Part shown: piece by piece, positions 2,644-48,051 of the stretch
How positions within the stretch are numbered: position 1 is the stretch's first letter
Layout of the letters: the number at the start of each line of letters is the position of its first letter
From: Escherichia coli O127:H6 str. E2348/69
Lineage (GTDB): Bacteria; Pseudomonadota; Gammaproteobacteria; Enterobacterales; Enterobacteriaceae
Assembly (NCBI RefSeq): GCF_000026545.1
Contig: NC_011601.1
Length of the DNA: 64,000 bases
Direction: 5' to 3' (one strand)
Translations under genes and position numbers: made by a program
The notes under the pieces: generated by a model
Told to the model about the DNA's origin: nothing
Databases searched by the model: none
What the model saw: the letters and a program-made list of their open reading frames with translations, nothing else

Positions 2644-3786
2644 TCAAATCTGCTTTTCATACAATCGGTAACGCTTGTACGGCTCCGCCCCAATGCGTTC
2701 CAGCATGTTATTCATGCCTGTATTGGTTTCGAGGATCCATGACATTTCCAGCGCATCGATCTTCCGACGGGCAAACGGATCGCGTAAGGCTTCAATCAAT
2801 AACAGCGCAATTACCGGGCCGATGCGGCTGAACTGATACTCGTCCCGCACGCCCATCAGCGGTACTCGCGCAGTTCGCACACCGCTGACTTTCAAACGCC
2901 ACAGCAATTTTGCCCAGCCGAAGGGAAAGAGCGATCCGTTCAGATCGGCAATCGCCTCGTTGATGTTCGGCAAGCCGACAATAAACGCGCAGGGTGCAGA
3001 ATCAATCTCAGCGATGTAGATCATATCGTCCGGCACCAGATATTTAAGTTGATCGCCCATGGTCGCGAATTCATGTTCGGTAAACGGCACAAATCCCCAG
3101 TTGTGCTGCCAGCCAGAATTGAAAATCTCACGCAGGATCTGCATCTCTTCGGCAAACCGCTGGCGATTGATGCAGCGAATGGTCACCTTTTTGCGCACCT
3201 GATCCATCAGTTTTTTTAGCGCCGGAGAGAAAGTGAGATCGGTTCGCTGCATCCACCACGCCAGTAAATCAATGCCTTTGTGATAACCCAGTTGTTCAAT
3301 ATGCGCGGCATACCACGGTTTGCCGTGTGGCATCATCGCACAGGGCGGAGTGTCAAAACCTTCAATCAGTAATCCGCTTTCCTGATTGATATTCAGGCTG
3401 AAAGGCCCGCTGATCTTACTTGCACCTTGTGACTTTAACCACGCTTCCGCTGTACCAAACAACGCGGCAAAAACCTGCGGATCATCAATGGCGTCAATCA
3501 TGCCGAAATGACCGGTATCTTCACCGTAACGCTCACGGTGCAAGGTATCTATTTGCGCGGTAATACGCCCAACTATCTGCCCCGCTTTTTTTGCCACCCA
3601 CGCCTGCCAGATGATATGGTCCGTCCCCGGATTCTTCGCAGACAAATGCTCGTTGCGTTCAATGAATAAAGGGGGTATCCAGTTTGGATCGTCGGGATAA
3701 AGTGATGACGGAAAAGCGATAAATGCCTTAAGGTCATTTTTATTAATTACTTTTTCAATTTTAATCATCAGCAGATCGCATTCCAT
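2644..3786 (-). CDS. yghO: YghO, full-length 380-aa form; candidate N-acyltransferase (remembered as a pseudogene in K-12)
   Basis: 380-aa intact ORF beginning MECDLLMIKIEKVINKNDLKAF...; divergent from the adjacent biosynthetic operon. Function inferred from context only; exact start (1st or 2nd Met) uncertain. Confidence 0.75.
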   Translation of the reverse strand: MECDLLMIKIEKVINKNDLKAFIAFPSSLYPDDPNWIPPLFIERNEHLSAKNPGTDHIIWQAWVAKKAGQIVGRITAQIDTLHRERYGEDTGHFGMIDAIDDPQVFAALFGTAEAWLKSQGASKISGPFSLNINQESGLLIEGFDTPPCAMMPHGKPWYAAHIEQLGYHKGIDLLAWWMQRTDLTFSPALKKLMDQVRKKVTIRCINRQRFAEEMQILREIFNSGWQHNWGFVPFTEHEFATMGDQLKYLVPDDMIYIAEIDSAPCAFIVGLPNINEAIADLNGSLFPFGWAKLLWRLKVSGVRTARVPLMGVRDEYQFSRIGPVIALLLIEALRDPFARRKIDALEMSWILETNTGMNNMLERIGAEPYKRYRLYEKQI

Positions 3787-4138
3787 AGTTCTGTGGGTAA
3801 CAAATAATTAACGGTGACAAACAGGTTGCAACAGCAACGAACGGCACCTTAACAATCAACCCAATGAATACAAACGACGAATAAATAGTATTATTAATGA
3901 TTACGATAAGGTCAGAGACTACACAGAAGCGCCTCAATGCCTTTTGTCGATTTAAGGCGACCGGACAAGGCTTCTTCTTAATATATTCATAAATTAAATA
4001 TCATTCACAAAAAAACTCAAACTCATTATTTAAATCAATGTTCATTTTCACACTGATGAAAATACTATCTCATTTATCTTTTATGCCTATATAATCCACC
4101 GCATTATTGTCATTTTATTTTGGATATCCAATTTTTTC
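3787..4138. promoter_or_regulatory. Divergent promoter region between yghO and the FAAL-reductase-ACP-AOS operon
   Basis: 352-bp strongly AT-rich intergenic region with several TATAAT-like hexamers separating divergent genes; no specific operator identified. Confidence 0.4.
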
Positions 4139-5872
4139 GTGGTGTATATGTCTAATAAAATCTTTACGCATTCCCTACCTATGCGCTATGCCGATTTTCC
4201 AACGCTGGTTGATGCTTTGGACTACGCCGCTCTGAGTAGCGCCGGAATGAATTTTTATGACAGACGTTGCCAACTTGAAGATCAACTGGAATATCAGACG
4301 TTAAAAGCGCGTGCCGAAGCTGGTGCGAAGCGGTTGTTATCGCTGAACCTGAAAAAAGGCGATCGCGTGGCGCTGATTGCCGAAACCAGTAGCGGGTTCG
4401 TAGAGGCTTTTTTTTCCTGCCAGTATGCCGGCTTAGTCGCCGTCCCGTTGGCGATTCCAATGGGCGTCGGTCAGCGGGATTCCTGGAGCGCCAAACTGCA
4501 GGGTTTACTGGCAAGTTGCCAGCCCGCAGCCATTATCACTGGTGATGAGTGGTTGCCACTGGTCAATGCCGCGACGCATAACAACAACCCCGAATTACAT
4601 GTTTTAAGCCACGCCTGGTTTAAGGCATTACCGGAAGCCGATGTTGCGCTCCAGCGTCCAGTTCCAAACGATATCGCCTACCTCCAGTACACCTCCGGCA
4701 GCACCCGTTTTCCCCGTGGCGTCATTATCACCCATCACGAAGTGATGGCTAATCTACGTGCTATAAGCCACGATGGCATTAAATTACGCCCTGGCGACCG
4801 CTGCGTCTCCTGGCTGCCTTTCTACCATGATATGGGACTGGTCGGCTTTCTCCTGACCCCCGTCGCCACGCAGCTTTCAGTAGATTATTTGCGCACTCAG
4901 GATTTTGCCATGCGTCCTCTGCAATGGCTTAAATTGATCAGTAAAAATCGCGGCACCGTTTCCGTTGCACCGCCGTTTGGCTATGAATTGTGCCAGCGCC
5001 GCGTGAATGAAAAAGATCTCGCTGAACTGGATCTTTCCTGCTGGCGCGTCGCTGGTATTGGAGCAGAACCGATCTCCGCAGAACAACTCCATCAATTCGC
5101 TGAATGTTTTCGTCAGGTTAACTTTGACGATAAAACTTTCATGCCGTGCTACGGACTGGCAGAAAATGCGCTGGCTGTCAGCTTCTCTGATGAAGCCTGC
5201 GGGGTTGTGGTTAACGAAGTGGATCGCGACATCCTCGAATACCAGGGTAAAGCCGTCGCGCCGGGTGCTGAAACACGCGCCGTATCGACTTTCGTCAACT
5301 GCGGTAAAGCGTTGCCGGAACATGGCATTGAAATCCGCAATGAAGCAGATATACCTGTCGCGGAACGTGTGGTAGGCCATATTTGCATCTCCGGCCCCAG
5401 CCTGATGAGCGGGTACTTTGGCGACCAGGTTTCGCAAGACGAGATTGCCGCGACGGGCTGGTTAGACACCGGCGACCTTGGTTATCTGCTGGACGGTTAT
5501 CTGTATGTCACCGGACGCATTAAAGATCTGATTATTATTCGTGGCCGTAATATCTGGCCGCAGGATATTGAATACATTGCGGAACAGGAACCGGAAATTC
5601 ATTCTGGCGATGCGATTGCTTTTGTTACCGCCCAGGAAAAAATCATTTTGCAGATCCAGTGTCGGATCAGCGACGAAGAACGTCGCGGGCAGCTTATCCA
5701 CGCGCTGGCAGCTCGGATCCAAAGCGAATTTGGCGTTACCGCGGATATCGATCTGTTGCCGCCCCACAGTATTCCCCGAACATCCTCCGGCAAGCCTGCC
5801 CGTGCGGAAGCGAAAAAACGTTATCAGAAGGCTTATGCTGCCAGTCTTCATGTGCAGGAATCCCTGGCATGA
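4139..5872 (+). CDS. AMP-dependent synthetase/ligase; fatty acyl-AMP ligase or acyl-ACP synthetase-like
   Basis: 577-aa ORF with adenylate-forming core motif YTSGSTRFPRGVIITH and downstream GYLYVTGRIKDLIIIRG motif typical of the ANL superfamily; stop overlaps next gene start (ATGA). Confidence 0.85.
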   Translation: MVYMSNKIFTHSLPMRYADFPTLVDALDYAALSSAGMNFYDRRCQLEDQLEYQTLKARAEAGAKRLLSLNLKKGDRVALIAETSSGFVEAFFSCQYAGLVAVPLAIPMGVGQRDSWSAKLQGLLASCQPAAIITGDEWLPLVNAATHNNNPELHVLSHAWFKALPEADVALQRPVPNDIAYLQYTSGSTRFPRGVIITHHEVMANLRAISHDGIKLRPGDRCVSWLPFYHDMGLVGFLLTPVATQLSVDYLRTQDFAMRPLQWLKLISKNRGTVSVAPPFGYELCQRRVNEKDLAELDLSCWRVAGIGAEPISAEQLHQFAECFRQVNFDDKTFMPCYGLAENALAVSFSDEACGVVVNEVDRDILEYQGKAVAPGAETRAVSTFVNCGKALPEHGIEIRNEADIPVAERVVGHICISGPSLMSGYFGDQVSQDEIAATGWLDTGDLGYLLDGYLYVTGRIKDLIIIRGRNIWPQDIEYIAEQEPEIHSGDAIAFVTAQEKIILQIQCRISDEERRGQLIHALAARIQSEFGVTADIDLLPPHSIPRTSSGKPARAEAKKRYQKAYAASLHVQESLA

Positions 5873-6783
5873 ATCAAACTGTCGCGGTGACGGGCGCTAC
5901 CGGGTTTATCGGTAAATATATTATTGATAACCTGCTCGCCCGCGGCTTTCACGTTCGCGCATTAACGCGTACTGCCCGCGCTCACGTCAATGATAATCTC
6001 ATCTGGGTGCGCGGTTCGCTGGAAGATACACATTCGCTTAGCGAACTGGTTGCCGGAGCCAGCGCGGTGGTCCATTGCGCCGGACAAGTGCGCGGACACA
6101 AAGAAGAGATTTTTACCCGCTGTAACGTTGACGGCAGCCTGCGCCTGATGCAAGCGGCAAAAGAGAGCGGCTTTTGCCAACGTTTTCTGTTTATCTCTTC
6201 GCTGGCGGCGCGCCATCCCGAACTCTCCTGGTACGCAAATTCCAAACACGTCGCCGAACAACGACTGATCGCAATGGCTGACGAAATTACGCTGGGCATT
6301 TTTCGCCCGACAGCCGTGTATGGTCCCGGCGATAAAGAGTTAAAACCGCTGTTTGACTGGATGCTGCGCGGCCTGCTGCCACGACTTGGTGCGCCAGATA
6401 CACAACTCTCTTTCCTGCACGTCACCGATTTTGCGCAAGCAGTGGGTCAGTGGTTAAACGCCGAAACTGTACAGACGCAAACCTATGAATTATGCGATGG
6501 CGTCGCTGGCGGCTATGACTGGCAACGCGTACGACAGCTTGCCGCCGAAGCCCGTTGTGGTTCTGTGCGGATGGTTGGCATTCCTCTGCCGCTACTCACC
6601 TGCCTTGCGGATATCAGTACTGCGTTGAGTCGCCTGGCAGGTAAAGAACCTATGCTGACCCGCTCGAAAATTCGTGAATTAACCCACGCCGACTGGTCGG
6701 CAAATAATAACCGTATTTCTGAAGATATTAATTGGTTTCCCGGGATTAGCCTGGAACACGCATTACGCAACGGGCTATTTTGA
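5869..6783 (+). CDS. NAD(P)-dependent epimerase/dehydratase-family oxidoreductase (extended SDR); candidate 3-keto reductase
   Basis: Start chosen at ATG 5869 (MNQTVAVTGATGFIGKYIIDNL...), giving an N-terminal Rossmann GxxGxxG motif; the longer ORF from 5659 would overlap the upstream gene by 200 bp and is rejected. Confidence 0.8.
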   Translation: MNQTVAVTGATGFIGKYIIDNLLARGFHVRALTRTARAHVNDNLIWVRGSLEDTHSLSELVAGASAVVHCAGQVRGHKEEIFTRCNVDGSLRLMQAAKESGFCQRFLFISSLAARHPELSWYANSKHVAEQRLIAMADEITLGIFRPTAVYGPGDKELKPLFDWMLRGLLPRLGAPDTQLSFLHVTDFAQAVGQWLNAETVQTQTYELCDGVAGGYDWQRVRQLAAEARCGSVRMVGIPLPLLTCLADISTALSRLAGKEPMLTRSKIRELTHADWSANNNRISEDINWFPGISLEHALRNGLF

Positions 6784-6814
6784 TTGTCTTGTTTAAAGGT
6801 GTGTTAACGTTTCT

Positions 6815-7063
6815 ATGGTAAATCGTGAAATAGTAATGGATTACATCCTTTCCTGTTTACAGGATTTGGTCGAAAACGGTGTGGAAATTAAGCCCGACAG
6901 CGATCTCGTCAACGATCTTGGCCTGGAGTCGATCAAAGTGATGGATCTCTTAATGATGCTGGAAGACAGATTCGATATTTCCATTCCTATTAATATTCTG
7001 CTGGATGTCAAAACCCCTGCGCAATTAATGGAAACTCTACTTCCATGGCTGGAGAATAAATAA
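6815..7063 (+). CDS. Acyl carrier protein (phosphopantetheine-binding)
   Basis: 82-aa acidic ORF with ACP-like motif DLGLESIKVMDLLMMLEDRF (conserved Ser attachment site); AAAGG ribosome-binding site upstream; stop overlaps next start (TAATG). Confidence 0.8.
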   Translation: MVNREIVMDYILSCLQDLVENGVEIKPDSDLVNDLGLESIKVMDLLMMLEDRFDISIPINILLDVKTPAQLMETLLPWLENK

Positions 7064-8235
7064 TGGGGCTATACGATAAATATGCGCGCCTTGCTGGCGA
7101 GCGCCTGCAATTTAGTGATAACGGGTTAACACCATTTGGCACCTGTATTGATGAAGTATATTCCGCCACCGAAGGCCGGATCGGCAATAAAAAAGTGATT
7201 CTGGCCGGGACCAATAATTATCTCGGTTTAACCTTTAATCATGATGCTATCCGCGAAGGTCAGGCAGCGTTAGCGGCCCAAGGCACTGGCACCACCGGTT
7301 CTCGTATGGCAAACGGCAGTTATGCGCCGCATCTGGCGTTAGAGAAAGAGATTGCCGAGTTTTTCAATCGCCCTACCGCTATCGTTTTTTCAACCGGTTA
7401 TACAGCTAATTTAGGCGTCATCAGCGCACTTGCCGACCATAACGCCGTGGTGTTACTGGATGCCGACAGCCACGCCAGTATTTATGACGCCTGTTCTCTC
7501 GGCGGCGCAGAGATTATTCGTTTCCGCCATAATGACGTCAACGATCTGGAACGGCGCATGGTCCGCCTCGGTGAACGGGCGAAAGAGGCGATTATTATCG
7601 TTGAAGGCATCTACAGTATGCTCGGTGACGTTGCGCCGCTGGCAGAAATTGTTGATATCAAACGTCGTCTCGGTGGTTATTTGATTGTCGATGAAGCACA
7701 TTCGTTTGGCGTGTTAGGCGTAACAGGCCGCGGACTGGTTGAAGCCGTTGGCGTTGAAGACGACGTGGATATTATCGTCGGCACCTTCAGTAAAAGTTTG
7801 GCTTCCATTGGTGGTTTTGCCGTGGGTTCAGAAGCGATGGAAGTGCTGCGCTACGGCAGCCGCCCGTATATTTTTACCGCCTCTCCTTCTCCGTCCTGCA
7901 TTGCGACCGTGCGCTCGTCGTTAAGAACCATTGCCACACAACCAGAGTTGCGGCAAAAACTGATGGATAACGCCAACCATCTGTATGACGGTCTGCAAAA
8001 ACTGGGTTACGAGTTAAGTTCACATATTAGCCCGGTAGTGCCAGTAATAATCGGTTCGAAAGAGGAAGGTTTACGCATCTGGCGCGAGCTTATTTCGCTG
8101 GGCGTTTATGTGAATCTTATCCTGCCACCTGCCGCGCCTGCAGGCATCACGCTGCTGCGCTGTAGCGTAAACGCTGCCCACAGTCGTGAGCAAATCGATG
8201 CCATCATTCAGGCATTTGCTACTCTGAAGCAGTAA
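7063..8235 (+). CDS. PLP-dependent alpha-oxoamine synthase (serine palmitoyltransferase / 8-amino-7-oxononanoate synthase family)
   Basis: 390-aa ORF with class-II aminotransferase features: HSFG motif and PLP-lysine motif GTFSKSLASIGGF. A paralogue of BioF/Kbl, but co-operonic with an ACP and an acyl-AMP ligase. Confidence 0.85.
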   Translation: MGLYDKYARLAGERLQFSDNGLTPFGTCIDEVYSATEGRIGNKKVILAGTNNYLGLTFNHDAIREGQAALAAQGTGTTGSRMANGSYAPHLALEKEIAEFFNRPTAIVFSTGYTANLGVISALADHNAVVLLDADSHASIYDACSLGGAEIIRFRHNDVNDLERRMVRLGERAKEAIIIVEGIYSMLGDVAPLAEIVDIKRRLGGYLIVDEAHSFGVLGVTGRGLVEAVGVEDDVDIIVGTFSKSLASIGGFAVGSEAMEVLRYGSRPYIFTASPSPSCIATVRSSLRTIATQPELRQKLMDNANHLYDGLQKLGYELSSHISPVVPVIIGSKEEGLRIWRELISLGVYVNLILPPAAPAGITLLRCSVNAAHSREQIDAIIQAFATLKQ

Positions 8236-8241
8236 TGTGAA

Positions 8242-8272
8242 CCCGCCGTGGTGTTGCGCCACGGCGGGTTTA
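8242..8272. terminator. Bidirectional intrinsic terminator between convergent operons
   Basis: Perfect inverted repeat CCCGCCGTGG-(7 nt)-CCACGGCGGG followed by TTTA, between the plus-strand AOS gene and the minus-strand LptG-like gene. Confidence 0.7.
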
Positions 8273-9349
8273 ATGTTGTCTGTCATGCCAATACACCAGG
8301 CTCAACGCCACCAGCACAAACGCTACCGGTAAACCGAGCGCGGTAACAGGTGCGCTCAACGCAAATAGCAATCCCAGATTGACCATGATTTGATAGCTGA
8401 TCCAGGTGAGTAAACCAACGATGACCCCTACAGCGAGACGGCTACCCATCCTAGGCGAGCGCGGGGCACTAAAGGTAAACGGCACAGCCAGCAAAATCAT
8501 CGCCAGAGTCAAGATGGGTTGCCCCAGTTTTTCCCACAGTGCAAGGCGGTATTCGCTGCTGGGTTGCCCGGTTTCCTGCAAATAATGGATGTAATGATTA
8601 AGCTGACGGACAGAAAAAGTATTTCCCGGCATCGATAACTCTTCAAGATTCATACTGGTGAAGGTCGATTGCCAGGCAAGATAATCAGATGTTTCCTGCG
8701 TTTCTTTGCCATTCAGCCATTTTTTATGATTCACACCATGCAGGATCCACGTTTTGTCATCTTCAATGGTGGCACTGCGCGCATAAATGTAGGATTCGAG
8801 CGAGAGATCATCGCGGTAATGAAATATCTCCACGTCCACCGGCTGGCCCTGCTCGTTCAGCGATTTCACCGTCACAAATTCATTACCACGCCTGGCCCAC
8901 AGCATATTGCCGGTAATGTCATCGTCCTCCCCCAACGCAGTGGCAGTCGATTTGATTTGCAGCGCCTGTTGCTGCAATGGCGACGCCACCCACTCATCTA
9001 TCGCGCCTAATGAAACAGTCCACAATATCCCGGCAACCAGCGCCACCAGTGCAATACGGAAGATAGAAAACCCCGTGCTGCGAATGGCGGTAAGCTCACT
9101 GTTTTTCGATAACTGCCCCAGGCCGACAATCCCTCCCAATAAGGCGATAAACGGCGAAAGTTCGACCAGTGTGCGCGGTAAGGTCATCAGCACCACCAGC
9201 ACCGCCTGAGTCCAGCGATAACCACCCGGGCTGACATCATCCAGTTCGTTAATCAGGTTGAAGGTGGTAAAAAGCGGCAGCAATAGCCCTGCGGCGGCGG
9301 CAAAACCGAGAAAGAGATGACGGATTAAATAGCGACTGAAAACATTCAT
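8270..9349 (-). CDS. LptG-like permease (YjgP/YjgQ family)
   Basis: Multi-pass membrane protein; start placed at Met of MNVFSRYLIRHLFLGF..., which overlaps the upstream gene stop (ATGA). Resembles LptF/LptG N-termini and topology, with a central periplasmic domain. Confidence 0.75.
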   Translation of the reverse strand: MNVFSRYLIRHLFLGFAAAAGLLLPLFTTFNLINELDDVSPGGYRWTQAVLVVLMTLPRTLVELSPFIALLGGIVGLGQLSKNSELTAIRSTGFSIFRIALVALVAGILWTVSLGAIDEWVASPLQQQALQIKSTATALGEDDDITGNMLWARRGNEFVTVKSLNEQGQPVDVEIFHYRDDLSLESYIYARSATIEDDKTWILHGVNHKKWLNGKETQETSDYLAWQSTFTSMNLEELSMPGNTFSVRQLNHYIHYLQETGQPSSEYRLALWEKLGQPILTLAMILLAVPFTFSAPRSPRMGSRLAVGVIVGLLTWISYQIMVNLGLLFALSAPVTALGLPVAFVLVALSLVYWHDRQH

Positions 9350-10416
9350 CGGGAAAATTTCTGCAGCAAAGAGAAGTCGCGTGCGACCAACATCAGCAGG
9401 CCCATTAGCATGAGTCCGGGTACTAACCACAAACCAGGAATGAGGGGAATCGCGCCGTTAGCCACCAGCGTACGGCAGACGTCGCCGCCATAAAAAATGG
9501 CAACAAACAGCAACGTCAGTGGCAATAACGTTGAAAATCGCCCTTGCCGCGGTTTTACCCGACTTAATGAAATGGCCAGCAGCGCCATCAACAATGCTGT
9601 CAGGCCACGGCTTTGTCGCCATTGCAGTTCGGCATGATCGGCAGGAAAGGCGGAGCGCGCCAGCTCCGTGACCGATTTTGCTTTGCGTTTGACGTTAGGG
9701 CTTTGATCCAGCGGATTCAGATGTAATTGCAGATTACGGTAGATCTGTTCGTTGTCGTCACGCCCCTGATGATCGAGAAGATAGGCGGTCCCGTTATGCA
9801 ACATAACGGTCGGTTTCTCAGGTGATGGGTCAACCACATCAACCGAACGGGCGCGGAAAATGCGGGTTCGATTAGCAGTAGAAGTATAAATCAGCGCGTC
9901 AGTCAGGCGATTATTATCCTGATCAACCGTCTGCGAAAGGATCATTCGTCCGTTATCGTTAGTGTTAAATTGCTTTGCCCGCAACTGGCGAACATCCAGC
10001 TCCGACTGTGACTGTTGCTCCAGTTGATAAATCTGCGCATAAGCCCACGGACGACCATACATCGACAGAAGGGTGACAAAAATACTTAGCGGTATCGCCA
10101 GATAAAGAACGGCTTTGTACAAGCGTCCCGGACTGCCCCCCGCCGCAGAGATAGCGGTAATTTCCGAGTCGGTATACATCTGCCCTAGCGTCACGCCAAC
10201 TGACACATACAGTCCAACAGGTAACAACATCTCCAGTGCAATCAGCACTTTGTAGAAAACGATATCCAGCACAACATCAAGAGCTAATGTCCCATTTGCC
10301 GCTTCGGTCAGATAACGCTGTGCGGAGTAGCTGGCGAAAATAAAGATCAGAAAACCGACGATAATCAGCACCAGACGGCGCGTACCACGCATGATGTAGT
10401 GTTCAACCAGCTTCAT
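9346..10416 (-). CDS. LptF-like permease (YjgP/YjgQ family)
   Basis: 356-aa ORF MKLVEHYIMRGTRRLVLIIVGFLIF...; hydrophobic N- and C-terminal segments with a central soluble domain, as in LptF/LptG; translationally coupled to the downstream permease. Confidence 0.75.
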   Translation of the reverse strand: MKLVEHYIMRGTRRLVLIIVGFLIFIFASYSAQRYLTEAANGTLALDVVLDIVFYKVLIALEMLLPVGLYVSVGVTLGQMYTDSEITAISAAGGSPGRLYKAVLYLAIPLSIFVTLLSMYGRPWAYAQIYQLEQQSQSELDVRQLRAKQFNTNDNGRMILSQTVDQDNNRLTDALIYTSTANRTRIFRARSVDVVDPSPEKPTVMLHNGTAYLLDHQGRDDNEQIYRNLQLHLNPLDQSPNVKRKAKSVTELARSAFPADHAELQWRQSRGLTALLMALLAISLSRVKPRQGRFSTLLPLTLLFVAIFYGGDVCRTLVANGAIPLIPGLWLVPGLMLMGLLMLVARDFSLLQKFSR

Positions 10417-10445
10417 CTCACTAACGCCCTCAATCCTTTGAATTT

Positions 10446-11009
10446 TTATTCATTGATCAGCTTCTGCGCCAGCGCAATGACATGATCTACCTCTTCCGGC
10501 GTCAGGCTGCCGTCCTTTGCCCACTGAATTTGCCCGGTTTTATTCAGCACCAGAATGGTTGAACTCTGCTCCTGCAAGTGCCAGGCAACGCGTCCCTGTC
10601 CATTGCCGTCAATAACGAATTGCGCCCATGGATAGCGGCGTTTATTTTTTTCGATTTTGCCAACGACAAAATAGCCGGTACCAAAGATGGCATCATCAGT
10701 GTTCACAATGGTGGTGGGCTGAAAACGATCCTGCGGAAAGTTTGCCGCTTCAACTGCTTTAATTAACAGTGAGTTCTTTTTCTTCGCCGACTTACGCCCG
10801 GCGATATACTGAATAATGCGAACTTTTCCTGCCAATTGGGTGCTGTTCCACTTTTGGTAGTGAATTTCGTCGTCGCTATTCCGAAGCAGCTCGCCGCCTT
10901 CCTGGATATAAACGGGGGTAACCGTTTTGCCAGTGACGAAATTGTGTGCCTGCACACCCGGGGCTAAGAGCATGATAATCAGCGCAATAATCAAACGAGA
11001 TGACATCAT
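10446..11009 (-). CDS. Secreted periplasmic protein, YtfJ-like
   Basis: 187-aa ORF with N-terminal signal peptide (MMSSRLIIALIIMLLAPGVQA); family assignment is from memory of YtfJ-type proteins, not a search. Confidence 0.5.
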   Translation of the reverse strand: MMSSRLIIALIIMLLAPGVQAHNFVTGKTVTPVYIQEGGELLRNSDDEIHYQKWNSTQLAGKVRIIQYIAGRKSAKKKNSLLIKAVEAANFPQDRFQPTTIVNTDDAIFGTGYFVVGKIEKNKRRYPWAQFVIDGNGQGRVAWHLQEQSSTILVLNKTGQIQWAKDGSLTPEEVDHVIALAQKLINE

Positions 11010-11017
11010 TGCTCCGG

Positions 11018-11842
11018 TTATAGCGGAAAACGCGAAATCAGCAGTTCTAAGCGCTGGCGAATATCGCTATCCAGCGCCATCGGTGCATCATACGACTGGC
11101 GGTTTTCCATATCATCCGCCACCATGTCGTCGTGTTTATCCCCCATCAGGCCATTAATGGCGGCGAGGAAGCGGGAAATCTGTAACGCCTCTTTATTTTC
11201 AGGATCAAGCGATCTTAAGGTGTCGTAATAAGAAACCTGCTGGCTGATGATTTTTCGCACATCATGAAATTCCCTGCCAGTTAGTTGCGGTTTAGCAATA
11301 ATCTCTTTCAGGATGTACATTTGCTTCTGGCGGTAGGCGATAAAACCGTTCACGGTTTCTAACTGGCTATGGCGCAATGAATAGTTCACCAGCCACCAGA
11401 CAGGGGAGCTCAAATAAACACGTAACAGGTTACCGTAAAACGACACAATATTTTTCTTACCGTTACGAAAGCCATCCTGAAAATGCCCAAGAAAAACGGT
11501 CGTTTTGCCGAATAAAAATCCAGCCTGATGCTTCTTTAAATACAGCCGTTGCGCAAAACGCAGATGCTTGTAGCGCGCTCGCATGTATTTAAACTGTTTG
11601 CGCTCGTCTGTCGTCAGCTCATCGCCTTTCGCCTGTTTGCGGATTAAACGCAGTAACTCCTGACGATTAACACCATCCAGCCAGAATTTCAGGCATAACG
11701 CGTAATTATCATGGATGATTTCGGTGGTACAACTTAGTGCGATAGTCGGCGGCAAACTGACCTGTGCATCAACAACATCATCTTCTTCAATCGCAACAAA
11801 TAGACGCTCGCTCGCCTCAAGCGGGAAATATTTTCTCATCAT
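11018..11842 (-). CDS. Hypothetical basic protein, operon member of unknown function
   Basis: 274-aa ORF with no signal peptide or obvious transmembrane segments; start overlaps the yghQ stop by 1 nt; no recognisable catalytic motif. Confidence 0.6.
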   Translation of the reverse strand: MMRKYFPLEASERLFVAIEEDDVVDAQVSLPPTIALSCTTEIIHDNYALCLKFWLDGVNRQELLRLIRKQAKGDELTTDERKQFKYMRARYKHLRFAQRLYLKKHQAGFLFGKTTVFLGHFQDGFRNGKKNIVSFYGNLLRVYLSSPVWWLVNYSLRHSQLETVNGFIAYRQKQMYILKEIIAKPQLTGREFHDVRKIISQQVSYYDTLRSLDPENKEALQISRFLAAINGLMGDKHDDMVADDMENRQSYDAPMALDSDIRQRLELLISRFPL

Positions 11843-13191
11843 CAGGATTTCTCTCCGGTTGAGTTATAAAGCAAGGAATGGCGCTGAAAAAATGCCTTTA
11901 AGGTCGGAATTAGCGAGAGCACCACATCCAGACATTGCCCACCGAAGTAAGCAAATGCAGCCCCCAGCACGCCAAACAGATGACAGAACATGAACAGCAA
12001 TACGATGTAGCCGATTGAGGCGATGGTTTGCGCCACGAGAAAAGCGCGCTGTTTTCCCGCCATCAATAGCAATGACTCCTGTGGGAAGCCCAGCATCGAA
12101 ATCACAATTGCGCCCAGCATCACCTGAATCAGGTCATACGCTTCGAGATACTTAACGCCAAACACCAGCGAAATGAGCGGCTTGCCGACGATCAACACCG
12201 CGAGCGCCACCAGAATACCGATTCCGCCCGCCAGTAAACCGGACTTCACGCCTAACAACCACGGTCTGGTGGTGCGTGGATCTAAACGCATCACCTCTGG
12301 ATAAAAACTTTTGCCCAGTAAACCCGCTGGCGTTCCGGCGGCATCGAAGAATGTCATGGCGATTTTAAATAACCCGACAGCAGCGGGTCCTAACACGATC
12401 CCCACCAACACTGTGCTGCACGAGTTACGCGCCGACCAGATGGAGTGGGCAATGTTGGTTGACCAGACAAAACTCCACGCGCCTTTAATGTGTCGGGCAG
12501 ACTCAAACAGATTCAATTTGAAGGCGTTATGGATATTTCTGCGGCGTAATTCGCGCGCGGCAAACCACCAGTACATGGTGCCGCCAACCAGATTCGACAC
12601 GTACCAGGCAATAACAAAACCCGCAAAACCAAAGTCAAAATACCAGGCTACGACGCTCCCCGCTGCGCGCAGAAAAGGTTTCGTCGCCTGCTGTACAGCA
12701 ATCAAATCAAAGCGATCTACCGCACGCAGAATGCCGGTCGGCGTGGAGGAAGCCATTGAAGGAATGAGCGTGCAATAGAGCGCCGCCAGCCAAAAGCTTT
12801 GGTCATCCAGACCTAATGAATGGGAAAGGAATGGCAGTAAGGCAATGCCGCCGACAATCGCCACCGCGCCGCTGACGATATCCAGCGAGAAGGAAAATGA
12901 GACAACATTGCGAAATTGCTGCGGATTATTGTTGGTCAAGGCCGGCGTTCCGTACTGGACCACCAGTTGCCATGTCTGAAACTTAATAAAATCGCTGATC
13001 GATTTGGCGTACGATTGCACAATTACCAGTACGCCAAACATGGCGGGCGTCATCCCTTTACCGGCACACGAGAGCGCCAACAGCCCCAGCAAAGCGCTCA
13101 CAACATTACTGGAGCCTAACCAGGCGCTATTGCGAATAATGGTGCGAAACGCGCCATCTGCAAACCAATGTTTGATGTTTAAACCCGCCAA
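11842..13191 (-). CDS. yghQ: Polysaccharide/lipid flippase-like inner membrane protein (MOP superfamily), full-length YghQ
   Basis: 449-aa polytopic membrane ORF; the K-12 YghQ is remembered as shorter (N-terminally truncated), and this copy appears to be the intact form. Confidence 0.8.
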   Translation of the reverse strand: MAGLNIKHWFADGAFRTIIRNSAWLGSSNVVSALLGLLALSCAGKGMTPAMFGVLVIVQSYAKSISDFIKFQTWQLVVQYGTPALTNNNPQQFRNVVSFSFSLDIVSGAVAIVGGIALLPFLSHSLGLDDQSFWLAALYCTLIPSMASSTPTGILRAVDRFDLIAVQQATKPFLRAAGSVVAWYFDFGFAGFVIAWYVSNLVGGTMYWWFAARELRRRNIHNAFKLNLFESARHIKGAWSFVWSTNIAHSIWSARNSCSTVLVGIVLGPAAVGLFKIAMTFFDAAGTPAGLLGKSFYPEVMRLDPRTTRPWLLGVKSGLLAGGIGILVALAVLIVGKPLISLVFGVKYLEAYDLIQVMLGAIVISMLGFPQESLLLMAGKQRAFLVAQTIASIGYIVLLFMFCHLFGVLGAAFAYFGGQCLDVVLSLIPTLKAFFQRHSLLYNSTGEKS

Positions 13192-13236: not shown

Positions 13237-13995
13237 TTAAGTTAAACTTCGGCGGTCAGAAACGATGGCAACCAGAGAAACCGCCTTCTGTGCCTGTTCC
13301 AGCACCTCGCTGTAAGGCGCTCTGGAATCAATCTCAAGAATTTTTGTGCCGTTATAGCCAATCGTCGACATGACGCCGATTTTGTCCTGCAGCTCGGCAT
13401 AGTCATGGTCAGGCTTGCGGGAGATGGCAGTATCAATATCAATCCCCAAGCGAATGATTAATTCAGGACGGTATTGCGCCATTTGTTGGTATAAGCGCCG
13501 TTCGCGCTGCGCCAGAAACATGCTGATTTTCCCGGTCGCACGTTCGACGCCGATCCCCGGTCCGTCATAATAAAAGCCCGAAATTTCAGCCTGCGGGAAG
13601 CGATCGCTGACCACCAGAACGCCACTTTGCGCCAGTCGCTGAACCTTGCGCAGATTCGCCATTCTTCGCAGCGAGAAGCAGTACATAATCACCGCCGCCC
13701 ATAGCGCCGGAGATTTGGTTTTCATGCTTTGGGTTTTCGAGGATTTGGCCGCCAGTCGCCGTTCCAGCCAGACGCCAACCAACGGCAACCGTTTGATTTT
13801 GTCGCCGTCTTCGCCTGAGAGCAGCCCCAGATAGCGGCGCTCGGTTTGCCAGTGTTGTTGCAGCGATTTCACCAGGTCAGTGGTCAGTGTGGATTTACCG
13901 GTGCCATCACACCCGACCACCGCAATCAGCCCCGGAATGTAGTTGGGCTGCGGCGCGGTTGTACTCTTAACAGTTTGTGTTTGTAGTGCATCCAT
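13237..13995 (-). CDS. yghR: P-loop NTPase, kinase-like (YghR)
   Basis: 252-aa ORF; Walker A GCDGTGKST plus VVSDRFPQ (DRY/F-like motif of nucleoside/nucleotide-kinase-fold proteins); paralogue of the next two genes. Confidence 0.85.
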   Translation of the reverse strand: MDALQTQTVKSTTAPQPNYIPGLIAVVGCDGTGKSTLTTDLVKSLQQHWQTERRYLGLLSGEDGDKIKRLPLVGVWLERRLAAKSSKTQSMKTKSPALWAAVIMYCFSLRRMANLRKVQRLAQSGVLVVSDRFPQAEISGFYYDGPGIGVERATGKISMFLAQRERRLYQQMAQYRPELIIRLGIDIDTAISRKPDHDYAELQDKIGVMSTIGYNGTKILEIDSRAPYSEVLEQAQKAVSLVAIVSDRRSLT

Positions 13996-14026: not shown

Positions 14027-14740
14027 TCAGGAAAGCGCGGCGTGAATTGCGCGTAGTGACGCTTGCAGAATTTCATCGGCTGGTTGCCGACCATCCAGTT
14101 CAAGGATCTTTGCGCCATTGAATGTCAGTTGCGGCGTAACGGCGATTTTTTCCTGTAACGCTGCCAGTTGGTGGTCAGGTTTACGCGCAAACGCGGTTTG
14201 TTCATCAATGCCAAGACGAATCAACAATACGGGCAAATAAGACGCCATCCATTGGTACAGCTTCAGCTCGCGCTGCCTTAACATTTTTATCCAACCGTTA
14301 CCGCCCGTGGTTTTTGCCAATTGCGGGCCATCAAAGCGAAAACCCGGCACTTCAACCTGCGGGTAGCGGTCGGTGATGAGCAGATAGCCTTGCTGGCTTT
14401 TACACAACATTTTGCGAAACTTGTACGCCCGCCAGCAGGAAAGCAGATAGATAACCAGCGCAGTAATATTGCCAGGCGGTGTTAAGGGCTTTTCGTGCAC
14501 ATGTGCCGCTTTACTTCGCAAATAACGCCCAAAAGGTGCGCCAATAACAGGGAGCTGTGAAATCCATTCGCCAATTCGCCCGGACGATTGCCCGAGATAA
14601 ATGTGTTCTGTTGGCATTCTTGATGCCAGTTCATTTACCAGGCTTGCCGTGAGGGTCGATTTACCTGAACCATCACATCCTACAATGGCAATAACACGCA
14701 CTGGCGTGGAATTAATTATTGACATATTACGTTGATTCAC
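14027..14740 (-). CDS. yghS: P-loop NTPase, kinase-like (YghS)
   Basis: 237-aa ORF; Walker A GCDGSGKST and LITDRYPQ motif; paralogue of YghR and YghT. Confidence 0.85.
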   Translation of the reverse strand: MNQRNMSIINSTPVRVIAIVGCDGSGKSTLTASLVNELASRMPTEHIYLGQSSGRIGEWISQLPVIGAPFGRYLRSKAAHVHEKPLTPPGNITALVIYLLSCWRAYKFRKMLCKSQQGYLLITDRYPQVEVPGFRFDGPQLAKTTGGNGWIKMLRQRELKLYQWMASYLPVLLIRLGIDEQTAFARKPDHQLAALQEKIAVTPQLTFNGAKILELDGRQPADEILQASLRAIHAALS

Positions 14741-14914: not shown

Positions 14915-15607
14915 ATGCAGTCAATAATACCTCCATTAATTGCCGTTATTGGTAGCGATGGTTCAGGCAAGTCAACGGTGTGTGAACATCTTATTACCGT
15001 TGTCGAAAAATATGGTGCTGCCGAAAGGGTTCATTTAGGAAAACAGGCCGGAAATGTCGGTCGTGCAGTGACAAAATTACCGTTGATGGGAAAATCCTTA
15101 CATAAAACAATTGAACGAAATCAGGTAAAAATAGCAAAAAAATTGCCGGGACCAGTTCCGGCGCTGGTAATTACAGCGTTTGTCGCCCGCCGCTTACTGC
15201 GCTTTCGTCATATGCTTGCCTGTCGTCGTCGCGGGTTAATTGTTTTAACCGACCGTTATCCGCAGGAACAGATTCCTGGCGCTTATGATGGTACGGTGTT
15301 CCCGCCTAACGTTGAAGGTGGTCGTTTTGTCTCATGGCTGGCAAGTCAGGAACGTAAAGCATTTCACTGGATGGCGAGCCATAAGCCCGATCTGGTCATC
15401 AAACTCAATGTCGATCTGGACGTAGCCTGCGCGCGTAAGCCTGACCACAAAAGAGAATCGCTGGAAAGGAAGATAGCAATAACGCCACAGTTAACCTTTG
15501 GAGGCGCGCAACTGGTTGATATCGATGCCAATCAACCGCTGGAACAAGTGCTGGTTGATGCGGAAAAAGCGATTACGGATTTTATGACCGCGCGTGGTTA
15601 TCACTAG
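14915..15607 (+). CDS. yghT: P-loop NTPase, kinase-like (YghT)
   Basis: 230-aa ORF; Walker [10 protein letters not shown] and VLTDRYPQ motif; divergently transcribed from yghS. Confidence 0.85.
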
Positions 15608-28701: not shown

Positions 28702-29010
28702 ATGGTCTGGTTAGCGAATCCCGAACGTTACGGGCAGATGCAGTACCGCTATTGCGGAAAAAGTGGTTTACGCCTGCCCGCGTTATCGCTCGGTTTATGG
28801 CACAATTTCGGTCACGTTAACGCGCTGGAATCACAGCGTGCGATCCTGCGTAAAGCGTTTGATTTAGGCATTACGCACTTTGATTTAGCCAACAATTACG
28901 GGCCGCCTCCAGGAAGCGCAGAAGAGAACTTTGGTCGCCTGCTGCGCGAGGATTTTGCCGCTTATCGCGATGAACTGATTATCTCTACCAAAGCCGGATA
29001 CGATATGTGG
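28702..29010 (+). pseudogene. yghZ: yghZ 5' fragment (aldo-keto reductase), interrupted by IS insertion
   Basis: Encodes MVWLANPERYGQMQYRYCGKSGLRLPALSLGLWHNFG...STKAGYDMW, then runs into the IS end, which supplies a TGA stop; the remainder of the reading frame resumes at 30440. Confidence 0.9.
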
Positions 29011-29034
29011 TGAACTGCACCCCAAATGTTGGAC
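29011..29034 (+). repeat. IS left terminal inverted repeat
   Basis: TGAACTGCACCCCAAATGTTGGAC, matching the reverse complement of the right end at about 20 of 24 positions. Confidence 0.75.
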
Positions 29035-29061
29035 ATAATCTGACATCTGAAGGTACAGTTT

Positions 29062-29555
29062 ATGAAACATTCATTTGAAGTAAAACTTGCCGCTGTAAAT
29101 CATTACCTGGCTGGTCATGCAGGCATCATTTCTACGGCAAAACTCTTTCAACTTTCTCACACCAGCCTCTCACACTGGATTAATCTTTTTCTTCTTCACG
29201 GTCCTCGGGCACTGGATTGCAGACACAAGCGTAGCTATTCTCCTGAAGATAAACTTTGCGTGGTTCTTTATGCTCTCGGGCATTCTGAGTCTCTACCCCG
29301 GGTAGCTGCCCGGTTTAACATTCCCAGCCACAACACGGTTAAAAACTGGATAAAAGGCTACCGCAAATCTGGTAATGAGGCCTTTATCAGGCGCAGGAAG
29401 GAGAAAAGCATGACCCGTTCTGATGATACCCATGAAAACGAGGCAAACATGACGCCGGAAGAGATGAAGAATGAGCTGCGTTATCTTCGCGCAGAAAATG
29501 CATATCTGAAAGCCATGCAGGAGCATCTCCTGGAAAAAAAGCGCCAGGAGCTGGA

Positions 29556-29583
<28 letters not shown>
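29062..29583 (+). CDS. insJ: IS150 transposase OrfA (InsJ, HTH DNA-binding)
   Basis: 173-aa ORF MKHSFEVKLAAVNHYLAGHAGIISTAKLF... recognised as IS150 InsJ; leucine-zipper-like C-terminal region. Confidence 0.9.
29535..29541 (+). other. Programmed -1 ribosomal frameshift slippery heptamer (A_AAA_AAG)
   Basis: A AAA AAG lies in the OrfA frame just before its stop, and the downstream OrfB is in the -1 frame; the classic IS3-family arrangement yielding an OrfAB fusion transposase. Confidence 0.7.
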
Positions 29584-31174
<1,591 letters not shown>

Positions 31175-31213
31175 CCTGTTAATAACGGGCGCGAGAACCG
31201 CGCCCGAATCAGA

Positions 31214-43149: not shown

Positions 43150-43400
43150 TTTGCTTCCAGAAATGGTAAAAAAATAATCAAAGGCCGGGGATTATACGCT
43201 GTATCACGCGCGGAAATGAAGTGATGTTGATGAACGGTGGCGAAATACCCTGGTGAGGTTTTTCACTGCCCGACTTGGGCAAGCACATTTAAGGCTGGCG
43301 GTATCGTGGCAACTGCCGCTACTATTTATGCCGATCAGCAACGTTCAAATCATATTGCACGACGATCGGCTATCCGAGGACACCCACAGTAAGGCAAGGT

Positions 43401-44150
43401 ATGGAACAGGTTATTACAAAGCGCCGCTATTACGATATTGGTCTACAGATTGAAGAGCTGCTGTATTCAGGCGTATTTAAGGCCGGAGAACGCTTACCTT
43501 CAGAACGTGAACTGAGCGAGCGGTTTAATACCAGCCGAACTACCATTCGTGAAGCCATCATTATGCTGGAACTGAAAGGCGTATTGAATGTGAAGCAAGG
43601 GTCAGGGATTTTCTTTGTCGACTCCACCGATAAGCTCAACCAGAAATCATTAATGCCCTATTCAGAAATTGGCCCGTTTGAACTGTTACAGGCACGTCAG
43701 GTAATTGAGAGCAATATTACCGGTTTTGCTGCCAGCCAGATCAGCTTTAACGAGTTACAAGAGTTGAAGAAAATCATTGGATTACAGGAAAAAGCCATCG
43801 CTGCGGAAAGTGATAAATTTGAAGACCTGGATCACCGATTTCATAGCATTATTGCCGAAGCGACGCAAAATCGGGTACTCATCAAACAAGCCGCTGAATT
43901 ATGGCGGGCAGTGCGCACAGAAAACCCCCGCTGGAAGAAACTTAACTACAAGTACCTGCATGAAAAGCATTTGCGTCTGCAATGGCTGGAAGATCACCGG
44001 GCTATTTTCTTGGCTCTGCAACAGAAAGATTCAGAGCTCGCCAGGGAAGCGTCCTGGAGACATCTGGAAAACAGCAAAAATGAACTGATCAAAATCTTCA
44101 AACAAGACGCTTCCATCAGCGATTTTGATGACTTTTTCTTCGCTCGTTAA
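43401..44150 (+). CDS. GntR/FadR-family transcriptional regulator (accessory island)
   Basis: 249-aa ORF with N-terminal GntR-type winged HTH (GERLPSERELSERFNTSRTTIREAI) and FadR-like C-terminal domain; not part of the K-12 ygiQ–ftsP interval as I remember it. Confidence 0.8.
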   Translation: MEQVITKRRYYDIGLQIEELLYSGVFKAGERLPSERELSERFNTSRTTIREAIIMLELKGVLNVKQGSGIFFVDSTDKLNQKSLMPYSEIGPFELLQARQVIESNITGFAASQISFNELQELKKIIGLQEKAIAAESDKFEDLDHRFHSIIAEATQNRVLIKQAAELWRAVRTENPRWKKLNYKYLHEKHLRLQWLEDHRAIFLALQQKDSELAREASWRHLENSKNELIKIFKQDASISDFDDFFFAR

Positions 44151-44472
44151 CCTTCATTAGTCCAGAGCTGGCGGAAAAAATAACGCCGGCTCTGCCTTCC
44201 GCCCTCCACTGGTACACGCTCTCTTTTTAATTGGTCTAATAAATCAACTATCATCAGATATCTTAGATTAGCGGCAATTATCCTAAAAACTGACCTCTAA
44301 AAAACTTTCCTTTCATTTTATTCATATAACTCATTGATACAGATATAAATAACGCCTTGTTGTTCTGTTTCGTACTTTTACCTTTCTCTGCAAGCGTGAT
44401 GCATCCCTCTGTTTTTGGTCTAGTGAATTATGTAAATTGGTATACACACAAGCCACCAGGAGTAAGAGCATA

Positions 44473-45945
44473 ATGTCAGGGAACGAAAGTATCGATGCCG
44501 CCCACTATGATCAGGTAACCACCTGGCCTCGGGGCGGGTTACAGGCAGATATTGTCCATATTGGTTTTGGCGCTTTTCATCGCGGACACCAGGCTGTCTA
44601 CACGGATCTCACTAATCAACTTTCGGACACCCGCTGGGGGATCTTTGAGATTAACCTGTTTGGTGATGCTCAACTGATCGAAAACTTAAATGCGCAAAAT
44701 GGGCTGTTTTCGGTTGTGGAAACATCTGCATCGCAATCTACCTCACGCCTTGTGCGTTCGGTGGCTGGCGGTATTCATACCCCCAGAGATGGCATTGCCG
44801 CAGCAATCCATAAACTGGCTGAACCTCAGGTAAAAATCGTTTCATTAACTATCACCGAGAAAGGCTATTGTCTCGATCCGCAAACGCGATCGCTTGATCT
44901 CACCAATGGATTAATCAACCACGATCTACAAAATCCGGATGCGCCTCAGTCGGCTATTGGCGTGATCGTCTGTGCTTTGCAACAACGTAAAGCGGCAGGA
45001 CTCGCCGCTTTTAGTGTGCTCTCCTGCGACAACTTGCCAGACAATGGGCATCTGACGCGAAATGCCGTTCTCGGTTTTGCCCGACAACTGGACCAGCCCC
45101 TGGCTCAGTGGATCGAAGAAAATGTCTCATTTCCAGGCACGATGGTAGATCGCATTGTTCCGGCAATGACTGAATCGCAATTCGCCTTACTGGAAACGAA
45201 AACCGGTTATGCCGATCCCTGCGGGATCGTCTGCGAATCATTTCGTCAGTGGGTGATCGAAGATAATTTTGTGCGCGGACGACCGGAATGGGATAAAGCC
45301 GGCGCGATGTTTGTCAGCAATGTTCAGCCTTATGAAGAGATGAAGTTACGCATGTTAAATGGTAGCCATTCATTTCTGGCTTATAACGGCTCACTGGCTG
45401 GCTATGAATTTATCTGGCAATGCATGGAAGACGCTGATTTTCGTTCCATTACCCGCCAACTGATGATTAATGAACAAGCCCGAACACTTAATCCAGACTT
45501 AAATATCGACGCCCAGGAATACGCCGACCTGTTAATTGAACGCTTTAGCAACCGTAATGTTGCACACCGTACCGGGCAAATCGCTATGGACGGTTCGCAA
45601 AAGCTTCCCCAGCGAGCGCTGACGCCCTGGCTGAAATTGCATCAGCAAAAACAAAACAATGCTGTTCTGTCACTGCTCGTTGCTGGTTGGTTGCATTATG
45701 TCATTGATGCTGTTGAGAAAAGCCAGTCTGTCGCTGATCCAATGAATGACCAACTTCAGGCGCTAATAAAGGAACAACAAGACGCATGGCAACAGGCGCT
45801 CGCATTACTGCACCTTAGCGCCATATTTGGTGATTTAAGCAACCATCAGCCATTTATAAATGAAATAAAAATCGCCTTTGCAAATATAAAAAACAAAGGC
45901 ATCAAGGCCACCATCAGCCAATTATTATCGGATGAGCAGAAATGA
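44473..45945 (+). CDS. Long-chain mannitol dehydrogenase-family oxidoreductase (mannonate/fructuronate reductase-like)
   Basis: Start at ATG 44473 with GGAG ribosome-binding site; N-terminal HIGFGAFHRGHQA dinucleotide-binding motif typical of the mannitol dehydrogenase family. Confidence 0.8.
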   Translation: MSGNESIDAAHYDQVTTWPRGGLQADIVHIGFGAFHRGHQAVYTDLTNQLSDTRWGIFEINLFGDAQLIENLNAQNGLFSVVETSASQSTSRLVRSVAGGIHTPRDGIAAAIHKLAEPQVKIVSLTITEKGYCLDPQTRSLDLTNGLINHDLQNPDAPQSAIGVIVCALQQRKAAGLAAFSVLSCDNLPDNGHLTRNAVLGFARQLDQPLAQWIEENVSFPGTMVDRIVPAMTESQFALLETKTGYADPCGIVCESFRQWVIEDNFVRGRPEWDKAGAMFVSNVQPYEEMKLRMLNGSHSFLAYNGSLAGYEFIWQCMEDADFRSITRQLMINEQARTLNPDLNIDAQEYADLLIERFSNRNVAHRTGQIAMDGSQKLPQRALTPWLKLHQQKQNNAVLSLLVAGWLHYVIDAVEKSQSVADPMNDQLQALIKEQQDAWQQALALLHLSAIFGDLSNHQPFINEIKIAFANIKNKGIKATISQLLSDEQK

Positions 45946-46958: not shown

Positions 46959-46968
46959 GGGAACAAAT

Positions 46969-47979: not shown

Positions 47980-48051
47980 TCACTATTTTTTATTATAACG
48001 ATAGAAAAGCGCTGTATTTATCGTTTCTGTTATATTAACCAGGAGCAGGAT

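Follow-up and report, generated by a model that had tools for sequence, protein, structure and literature searches.

Why should a chromosome of Escherichia coli encode a second pair of permeases of the lipopolysaccharide (LPS) exporter type, with no ATPase beside them and in the company of genes for sphingolipid synthesis? Proteins of the LptF/LptG family are the transmembrane domains of LptB2FG, a type VI ATP-binding cassette (ABC) transporter and the target of the zosurabalpin-class antibiotics. The question is raised by a stretch of 64,000 nucleotides from E. coli O127:H6 str. E2348/69 (contig NC_011601.1), which was analysed over its full length and is called the window below. Two adjacent genes on its minus strand, lptF2 (9346..10416; 356 aa, ATG start) and lptG2 (8270..9349; 359 aa, ATG start), encode paralogues of the LptF-type and LptG-type permeases, and next to them lies spt, the gene for serine palmitoyltransferase. 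Our analysis makes it likely that lptF2 and lptG2 encode the membrane half of a second Lpt-type extractor, which would be dedicated to the sphingolipid made by the locus and powered by the housekeeping ATPase LptB. A second pair that shares LptB is already in print for Caulobacter, and the E. coli pair is a putative member of that known kind.

Both proteins are full-length members of the LptF/LptG permease family, with the F type and the G type resolved. LptF2 scores 320.5 bits on the NCBIfam model for LptF (TIGR04407, cut-off 230) and LptG2 305.2 bits on that for LptG (TIGR04408, cut-off 240), whereas their scores on the opposite models are far weaker (68.6 and 93.2 bits, respectively). The YjgP/YjgQ family domain PF03739 is annotated on the homologues. 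In phmmer searches of the PDB, LptF2 matches LptF chains over its whole length with E-values between 5e-32 and 1e-20, as LptG2 does LptG chains (E = 1.8e-41). AlphaFold2 models, built from 44-sequence alignments, reach a mean predicted local distance difference test (pLDDT) score of 81.7 for LptF2 and 82.6 for LptG2, and their top Foldseek matches in the PDB are an LptF (9dok_F, TM-score 0.81) and an LptG (6mit_G, TM-score 0.86). Each model contains six transmembrane (TM) helices and a six-stranded beta-jellyroll between TM3 and TM4, the elements following one another as two helices, a coupling helix, a third TM helix, six strands and three further helices.

The two genes are also arranged as a pair. 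At their junction (CCCGATGAATG) the ATG of lptG2 shares four nucleotides with the TGA of lptF2 (ATGA), and an overlap of this length recurs in 71 of 76 related loci, the remaining five overlapping by 1 nt. A mechanically derived list of open reading frames (ORFs) extends lptG2 to a GTG at 9430, but the NCBI annotation pipeline (PGAP) and every orthologue use the ATG at 9349. The initial annotation of this DNA, made from the letters alone, had described positions 8270-10416 as two translationally coupled permeases of the YjgP/YjgQ family, and the NCBIfam scores and the ATGA overlap bear it out. PGAP names both genes 'LPS export ABC transporter permease', a naming that misleads by making genomes look as if lptF and lptG had been duplicated. 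Simple duplication, a possibility that had been raised at the outset, is ruled out by identities of only 28-31% (30.6% between LptF2 and K-12 LptF, 28.2% between LptG2 and K-12 LptG). As had been expected, the housekeeping copies lie elsewhere: they adjoin pepA in K-12 and are present in 5425 of 5426 complete E. coli genomes, while the second pair is found in 4131 of these genomes (76%).

If the pair is not a copy of the LPS exporter genes, its genomic context may indicate what it serves. A HMMER search over 1.84 billion cluster representatives, followed by look-ups of genomic context, retrieved LptG2 relatives of 33-50% identity from Pseudomonas umsongensis, Methyloversatilis and several metagenomic contigs, all adjoining an LptF-like gene in clusters with AMP-binding, Epimerase, PP-binding, Aminotran_1_2 and YghO-like proteins. 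One distant LptG-like relative (P0133) has neither LptF nor spt nearby, and another (P0249) lies on a contig of 2 kb whose context is uninformative. With such mixed contexts among the distant relatives, the spt-linked clade has no sharp boundary, and the neighbour-joining tree serves as a rough guide only.

A scan of one genome per GTDB species, with a six-sequence LptG2 alignment as query, gave 79 loci, exclusively from Gamma- and Betaproteobacteria. The Enterobacterales among them include Escherichia, Hafnia, Serratia, Erwinia, Pantoea, Citrobacter, Rosenbergiella and others; the remainder come from Pseudomonas, Stutzerimonas, Azotobacter, Azomonas, Nitrococcus and Betaproteobacteria. LptF2 adjoins LptG2 in 79 of 79 loci, and spt lies within 10 kb of the pair in all 58 loci that are fully flanked. 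Twelve loci without Spt have flanks that are incomplete on at least one side. The least incomplete of these (19.5 kb), from Azomonas macrocytogenes, has the F2-G2 pair but, between -8.4 kb and +10 kb, none of the biosynthetic genes; a stand-alone nucleotide-binding domain (NBD) ORF follows about 6 kb downstream. A seven-gene core of yghO-like, aasR, cerR, acpR, spt, lptF2 and lptG2 recurs in Pseudomonas, Azotobacter and Methyloversatilis, and no homologue of LptC or LptA was found in any of the 79 loci. Since the linkage to spt is seen both in the contexts of the homologues and in 58 of 58 fully flanked loci, it is more than a local coincidence. A dedicated route for a lipid other than LPS, which the initial annotation had offered as one of two possibilities, is thus favoured by the spt-locus setting.

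A closely comparable arrangement has been studied in Caulobacter crescentus, whose LptF2/LptG2 are CCNA_01214/CCNA_01213 (CC_1156/CC_1155). The LptC2, LptF2 and LptG2 of Caulobacter were named earlier (PMC11324152). A preprint of April 2026 by Uchendu, Isom and Klein reports co-purification of LptF2 with LptG2, and of both with the sole LptB; deletion of lptF2/G2 is tolerated only if the cell is blocked in making the sphingolipid or its anionic head group, as in spt and cpgB mutants. Its Fig. 2B draws the locus of E. coli UTI89 as homologous (bioRxiv 10.64898/2026.04.12.717747). As in Caulobacter, the second pair of E. coli is extra to housekeeping lptFG and lies inside an spt locus, the locus holds no lptB paralogue, and the genome has one lptB. 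Unlike that of Caulobacter, the E. coli locus is devoid of LptC2, and according to the preprint lptC2 is restricted to Caulobacter. The head-group genes also differ: the place of CpgB, Sgt and related genes of Caulobacter is taken in E. coli by YghR/S/T, a MOP flippase, a YtfJ-like protein and an orphan of 274 aa. The formation of an F2-G2 complex, its binding to LptB and its sphingolipid-dependent essentiality have been demonstrated experimentally in Caulobacter and may be extended to E. coli by analogy. For the E. coli pair, our analysis of sequences and predicted structures establishes the family, the fold, the pairing, the linkage to spt across lineages, the absence of an ATPase, the conservation of the coupling helices and the single lptB.

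Where, then, would the energy come from? The initial annotation had stated that no ABC ATPase gene is nearby and that the adjacent P-loop proteins do not carry the ABC signature. Both statements hold: the 64-kb window contains no ABC ATPase, none of its ORFs having both a Walker A motif and an LSGGQ-type signature, and of the two motifs only Walker A is present in the P-loop proteins YghR, YghS and YghT. ABC ATPase domains do occur in 28 of the 79 loci, almost all of them in fused MsbA-type exporters of about 575-600 aa encoded directly downstream of spt in Pseudomonadales and Betaproteobacteria. These exporters are plausible flippases, at the position held in Enterobacterales by the MOP-family protein YghQ, as if one presumed flippase had been replaced by another that is not homologous to it. 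Stand-alone NBD ORFs number only four in the 79 loci, all outside Escherichia and at distances of 5-9 kb from the pair, and no lineage in this set has a conserved stand-alone ATPase beside the pair. The lack of a cognate ATPase thus characterizes the clade as a whole.

The features by which LptF and LptG hold LptB are, in contrast, retained. In E. coli the coupling-helix glutamates E84 of LptF and E88 of LptG mediate LptB binding (PMC5082905). The former corresponds to E85 of LptF2, kept in 77 of 77 orthologues, and the latter to E85 of LptG2, kept in 76 of 77. In the LptG2 of Tatumella sp. JGM91 a Gln stands in place of the Glu and the match is shortened, which may reflect decay. Other coupling-helix positions are retained as well (Y80, A90 and G92 of LptF; L83, L89 and G96 of LptG), and the coupling-helix window is the segment closest to the housekeeping copy, with 62.5% identity in LptF2 and 56% in LptG2 against 25-31% overall. 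A blastn search in 'distant' mode, which would miss a highly divergent paralogue, placed lptB at 5426 sites in 5425 of the 5426 genomes, all at least 95% identical, in keeping with a single copy. Recruitment of the housekeeping LptB, the other possibility that had been put forward, is supported by the coupling helices, the single lptB, the lack of any conserved ATPase and the analogy with Caulobacter; by this analogy the pair of E. coli most likely uses the one housekeeping LptB. The two possibilities had been presented as alternatives, and the evidence points to both together.

The sphingolipid extractor could instead draw its energy from another ABC ATPase, whose gene would lie at some other site in the genome. 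With none in the locus the gene for the partner must in any case be sought outside it, stand-alone NBDs are numerous in E. coli, and four of the 79 loci carry an unrelated one at some distance from the pair. However, the residues that contact the LptB groove are kept (PMC5082905), none of the lineages conserves an NBD near the pair, the F2/G2 proteins of Caulobacter pull down LptB, and a further lptB-like gene could not be detected in E. coli. We thus regard another ATPase as improbable and retain LptB as the presumed motor.

Several points weigh against the assignment of the pair to an LptB-driven sphingolipid route, and they concern the motor, the substrate and the analogy. E. coli has roughly 80 other ABC ATPases, and the role proposed for LptB is not exclusive of them. 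Both permeases pass the 'equivalog' cut-offs by which NCBIfam recognizes LPS exporters, and by sequence alone they are compatible with LPS as the substrate. No report of a native E. coli sphingolipid was found in the literature searched. The orthology of the E. coli pair with that of Caulobacter rests on the preprint figure and on the shared genomic context. In UTI89, the inferred lptG2 (UTI89_C3401) tolerates transposon insertions, unlike its Caulobacter counterpart (PMC8767336); perhaps the locus is silent under laboratory conditions, or its product is not toxic. Finally, the loss of contacts to the lipid A phosphates is not diagnostic of the substrate.

This last point deserves some detail. 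Basic residues that contact the lipid A phosphates and the inner core have been listed for LptF and LptG (PMC6744409), and ten of them were compared with the second pair (LptG K34, K40, K41, K62, R133 and R136; LptF R33, K317, K322 and R263). Six are lost (LptG K34N, K40D, K41D and R133L; LptF K317V and K322I) and four are kept or conservatively replaced (LptF R33 and R263; LptG K62R and R136K); further, LptG D37 is changed to Asn and LptF R212 falls in a gap. The acidic character of LptG2 positions 31/37/38, which correspond to LptG K34/K40/K41, was considered as a marker of a non-LPS substrate and rejected: the LDDVG-type motif is common among 131 LptG representatives, many of which, from other taxa, lack K34, K40 and K41, and the K/K pair is an enterobacterial peculiarity.

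Could the pair then be an alternative or back-up exporter of LPS, for example of a modified form, standing beside spt by coincidence? The names given by PGAP agree with the NCBIfam scores on this, the fold is the same, and the site for the 1'-phosphate is partly kept (LptF R33, LptG K62R and R136K). The distribution and the genetics speak otherwise. Linkage to spt in all 58 fully flanked loci extends over several orders, K-12 has lost the pair with no known LPS defect, and both contacts to the 4'-phosphate (LptG K40 and LptF K317) are gone. In TraDIS (transposon-directed insertion-site sequencing) of UTI89, the housekeeping yjgP/yjgQ, that is lptFG, received zero insertions (PMC8767336, supplement 2); the table in question appears to be the essential-gene list of that study. 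To judge from the gene numbering in the tables (glcC = C3395, yghQ = C3405), UTI89 has the complete locus. Because UTI89 carries the locus and yet has no insertions in yjgP/yjgQ, the second pair is unlikely to be a spare LPS exporter. The TraDIS supplements for strain EC958 make no mention of lptF/G or yjgP/Q. The linkage, the UTI89 data and, although not diagnostic, the lost 4'-phosphate contacts are indirect evidence that points away from LPS, leaving a coincidental LPS exporter very improbable and the sphingolipid of the locus as the favoured candidate substrate.

The pair might also have no current function in E. coli, the locus being cryptic or in decay. This touches on the history of the locus, which comprises 13 genes and lies between glcC and pitB. 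The whole 13-kb neighbourhood is present at a coverage of at least 80% in 4050 E. coli genomes (about 75%), including the type strain, ST131 strain EC958, ABU 83972 and Shiga toxin-producing (STEC) and enterotoxigenic strains. In K-12 MG1655 (3130146-3131340) an IS5 element (insH9) replaces everything from aasR through the 5' part of yghQ; it stands for positions 3786-12100 of the window, with aasR, cerR, acpR, spt, lptG2, lptF2, the ytfJ-like gene, the gene for the 274-aa protein and the 5' end of yghQ. The genes annotated as yghO and yghQ in K-12 are remnants of the sphingolipid locus. Elsewhere the locus has suffered an IS1-associated loss in another strain and a partial one in strain 55989. 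The term 'island' used in the initial annotation did not survive this comparison. A foreign origin was rejected in view of a GC content equal to that of the flanks, the constant glcC-pitB site and the repeated losses mediated by insertion sequences. Because the GC content is flank-like, the site is the same in about 75% of genomes and several losses are independent, the locus is an ancestral, frequently lost part of the E. coli chromosome.

These independent deletions, the absence of the locus from about 25% of genomes, the want of a reported native sphingolipid and the insertions tolerated in UTI89 lptG2 are what a cryptic locus would predict. Against decay, more than 4000 genomes carry lptF2 and lptG2 as full-length ORFs with 95-99% identity. 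Across many enterobacterial genera the proteins remain full length at 52-75% identity, with the gene overlap and the key residues kept, which indicates purifying selection, and the AasR, AcpR and Spt of BL21 are active enzymes (PMC9386255). On balance a functionless locus seems improbable, and we keep to a working sphingolipid extractor. Rearrangements have nevertheless left traces in individual strains. Some E. coli records contain a 456-aa 'GspC' protein in which PF11356 is joined to the C-terminal 72% of LptG2 (P0024), and in another strain gspL adjoins a yghT remnant, which suggests large deletions joining the type II secretion cluster to the locus.

Comparison with better-known Lpt systems helps to place the pair. 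It shares with the LptB2FG(C) complex of E. coli (PDB 6MHU, 6MI7, 6S8H) the PF03739 domain, TM-scores of 0.8-0.86, the periplasmic beta-jellyroll, the conserved coupling-helix Glu and adjacent, overlapping F and G genes. It differs in being accessory (76% of genomes), whereas the housekeeping pair is essential, and in its genomic context. The pairs in the spt loci of Pseudomonas, Azotobacter and Methyloversatilis are 43-58% identical to it and share the 4-nt F-G overlap. These loci add genes for an MsbA-type exporter, a CDP-alcohol phosphatidyltransferase, nucleotidyltransferases, a metallophosphatase and DAGK_cat/Tam41 proteins; they are devoid of YghQ, the YtfJ-like protein and the 274-aa protein, and most of them also of YghRST. 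In Sphingomonas, LptFG lies beside sphingolipid genes and is presumed to carry glycosphingolipid (bioRxiv 10.64898/2026.04.12.717747). By its description this system stands apart: Sphingomonas is free of LPS, its LptFG is the sole copy, and there is no competition for LptB with an LPS machine.

The genes around the pair supply the putative pathway. Four biosynthetic genes lie on the plus strand: aasR (4148..5872), for a fatty acyl-AMP ligase/acyl-acyl carrier protein (ACP) synthetase (NF006624, 867 bits, cut-off 600); cerR/epi (5869..6783), for a reductase of the NAD-dependent epimerase/dehydratase family (PF01370, E = 7.8e-23); acpR (6815..7063), for a specialised ACP (matches to ACP families; ACP also by PGAP); and spt itself (7063..8235; NF047599, 597 bits, cut-off 500; spt also by PGAP). 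On the minus strand, yghO (2644..3786) encodes a putative N-acyltransferase and candidate bacterial ceramide synthase. YghO has no family match in Pfam or NCBIfam, and spt loci in other lineages hold homologues of 47-60% identity. In E. coli BL21 the five biosynthetic genes have been equated with the ceramide genes of Caulobacter, with cerR/epi corresponding to CC_1164 and yghO (ECD_02850) to aca, and the BL21 orthologues AasR (ECD_02851), AcpR (ECD_02853) and Spt (ECD_02854) are biochemically active (PMC9386255).

The biosynthetic genes converge on an operon that reads yghS-yghR-yghQ-(274-aa orphan)-(ytfJ-like)-lptF2-lptG2. The stop codons of lptG2 and spt are 34 nt apart. Between these convergent stops, and overlapping that of lptG2, lies a very strong hairpin (8238..8272; TGAACCCGCCGTGG-TGT-TGCGCCACGGCGGGTTTA) with a 16-bp stem and 10 G-C pairs, probably a bidirectional terminator to judge from its sequence. 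Only 29 nt upstream of lptF2 and in the same direction, the ytfJ-like gene (10446..11009, minus strand) encodes a YtfJ-family protein (TIGR01626, 212.5 bits, cut-off 151) whose N-terminus resembles a signal peptide (MMSSRLIIALIIMLLAPGVQA/HN). It accompanies the pair in 47 of the 79 loci, all of the Enterobacterales type, and a sequence search found no relative of the protein in the PDB. Perhaps it serves the extractor as a periplasmic partner specific to this lineage. The gene for the 274-aa orphan (11018..11842, minus strand) is co-conserved in 46 of the 79 loci; sequence searches of Pfam, NCBIfam and the PDB returned no match for its product. The gene yghQ (11842..13191, minus strand), cut by IS5 in K-12, is full length here and encodes a candidate MOP/Wzx-type flippase, with weak matches to MOP flippase families and the PGAP name 'lipopolysaccharide biosynthesis protein'.

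At the edge of the locus stand three paralogues for P-loop kinase-like proteins, yghR (13237..13995) and yghS (14027..14740) on the minus strand and the divergently oriented yghT (14915..15607) on the plus strand. The proteins show a weak resemblance to dTMP or nucleoside kinases (E-values from 1e-5 to 2e-7), and their genes are co-conserved with the locus in Enterobacterales, three such paralogues being peculiar to this type of locus. Some Pseudomonas loci hold distant copies (30-38% identity), and one Pseudomonas metagenome-assembled genome has copies of 69-73%. Other lineages have a DAGK_cat ceramide kinase, for which YghR/S/T may substitute by phosphorylating the head group of the sphingolipid.

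From these elements a complete, if conjectural, route can be drawn. AasR, AcpR and Spt would produce 3-oxo-sphinganine, which YghO and CerR would convert to ceramide at the cytoplasmic face of the membrane. The head group would then be modified by locus-specific enzymes, possibly the putative kinases YghR/S/T, and YghQ, the MOP-family protein, would probably flip the lipid across the inner membrane. An LptB2-F2-G2 complex would extract the sphingolipid, with energy supplied by two copies of LptB docked on the conserved coupling helices of LptF2 and LptG2. The onward path would most likely be the shared LptC/LptA/LptDE bridge to the outer membrane. For E. coli, we infer every step, including the identity of the substrate, the expression of the locus, the use of LptB and the downstream route. 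The sphingolipid nature of the cluster, the ancestral status of the locus and the prior publication on Caulobacter are absent from the initial annotation.

It is tempting to go one step further and to suggest that in Enterobacterales LptFG and LptF2G2 compete for one LptB dimer and one LptC/A/DE bridge. About 75% of natural E. coli would then make a sphingolipid, probably phosphorylated, that was missed for decades through the IS5-associated loss in K-12, and the YtfJ-like protein would be a periplasmic acceptor, the role proposed for LptC2. We hold this extended proposal, taken as a whole, to be speculative and rather unlikely. The narrower proposal of an LptB-powered sphingolipid extractor has consequences of its own. 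In genetic, structural and pharmacological terms, no Lpt machine is better understood than that of E. coli. K-12 is without the locus, and most natural and most clinical E. coli carry it; carriers of the second pair include enteropathogenic E. coli, uropathogenic E. coli of ST131, STEC and BL21. If the proposal is true, a sphingolipid route to the outer membrane becomes testable with the tools of E. coli, and there may be competition between the two pathways for LptB and the bridge, with a bearing on how Lpt inhibitors act and on the homeostasis of the envelope. Conclusions drawn from K-12 may then misdescribe the envelope of clinical strains.

Two minor features lie farther along the window. 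The gene gpr, for L-glyceraldehyde 3-phosphate reductase (about 28702-31177), is split in E2348/69 by IS1397, an element of the IS3 family. The lowest GC content (0.42-0.47) is found at about 43400-50900, between ftsP and ygiQ, in a region holding genes for an accessory tripartite ATP-independent periplasmic (TRAP) transporter, a mannitol-dehydrogenase-family protein, an Ldh-family protein, a zinc-type alcohol dehydrogenase and an FCD regulator.

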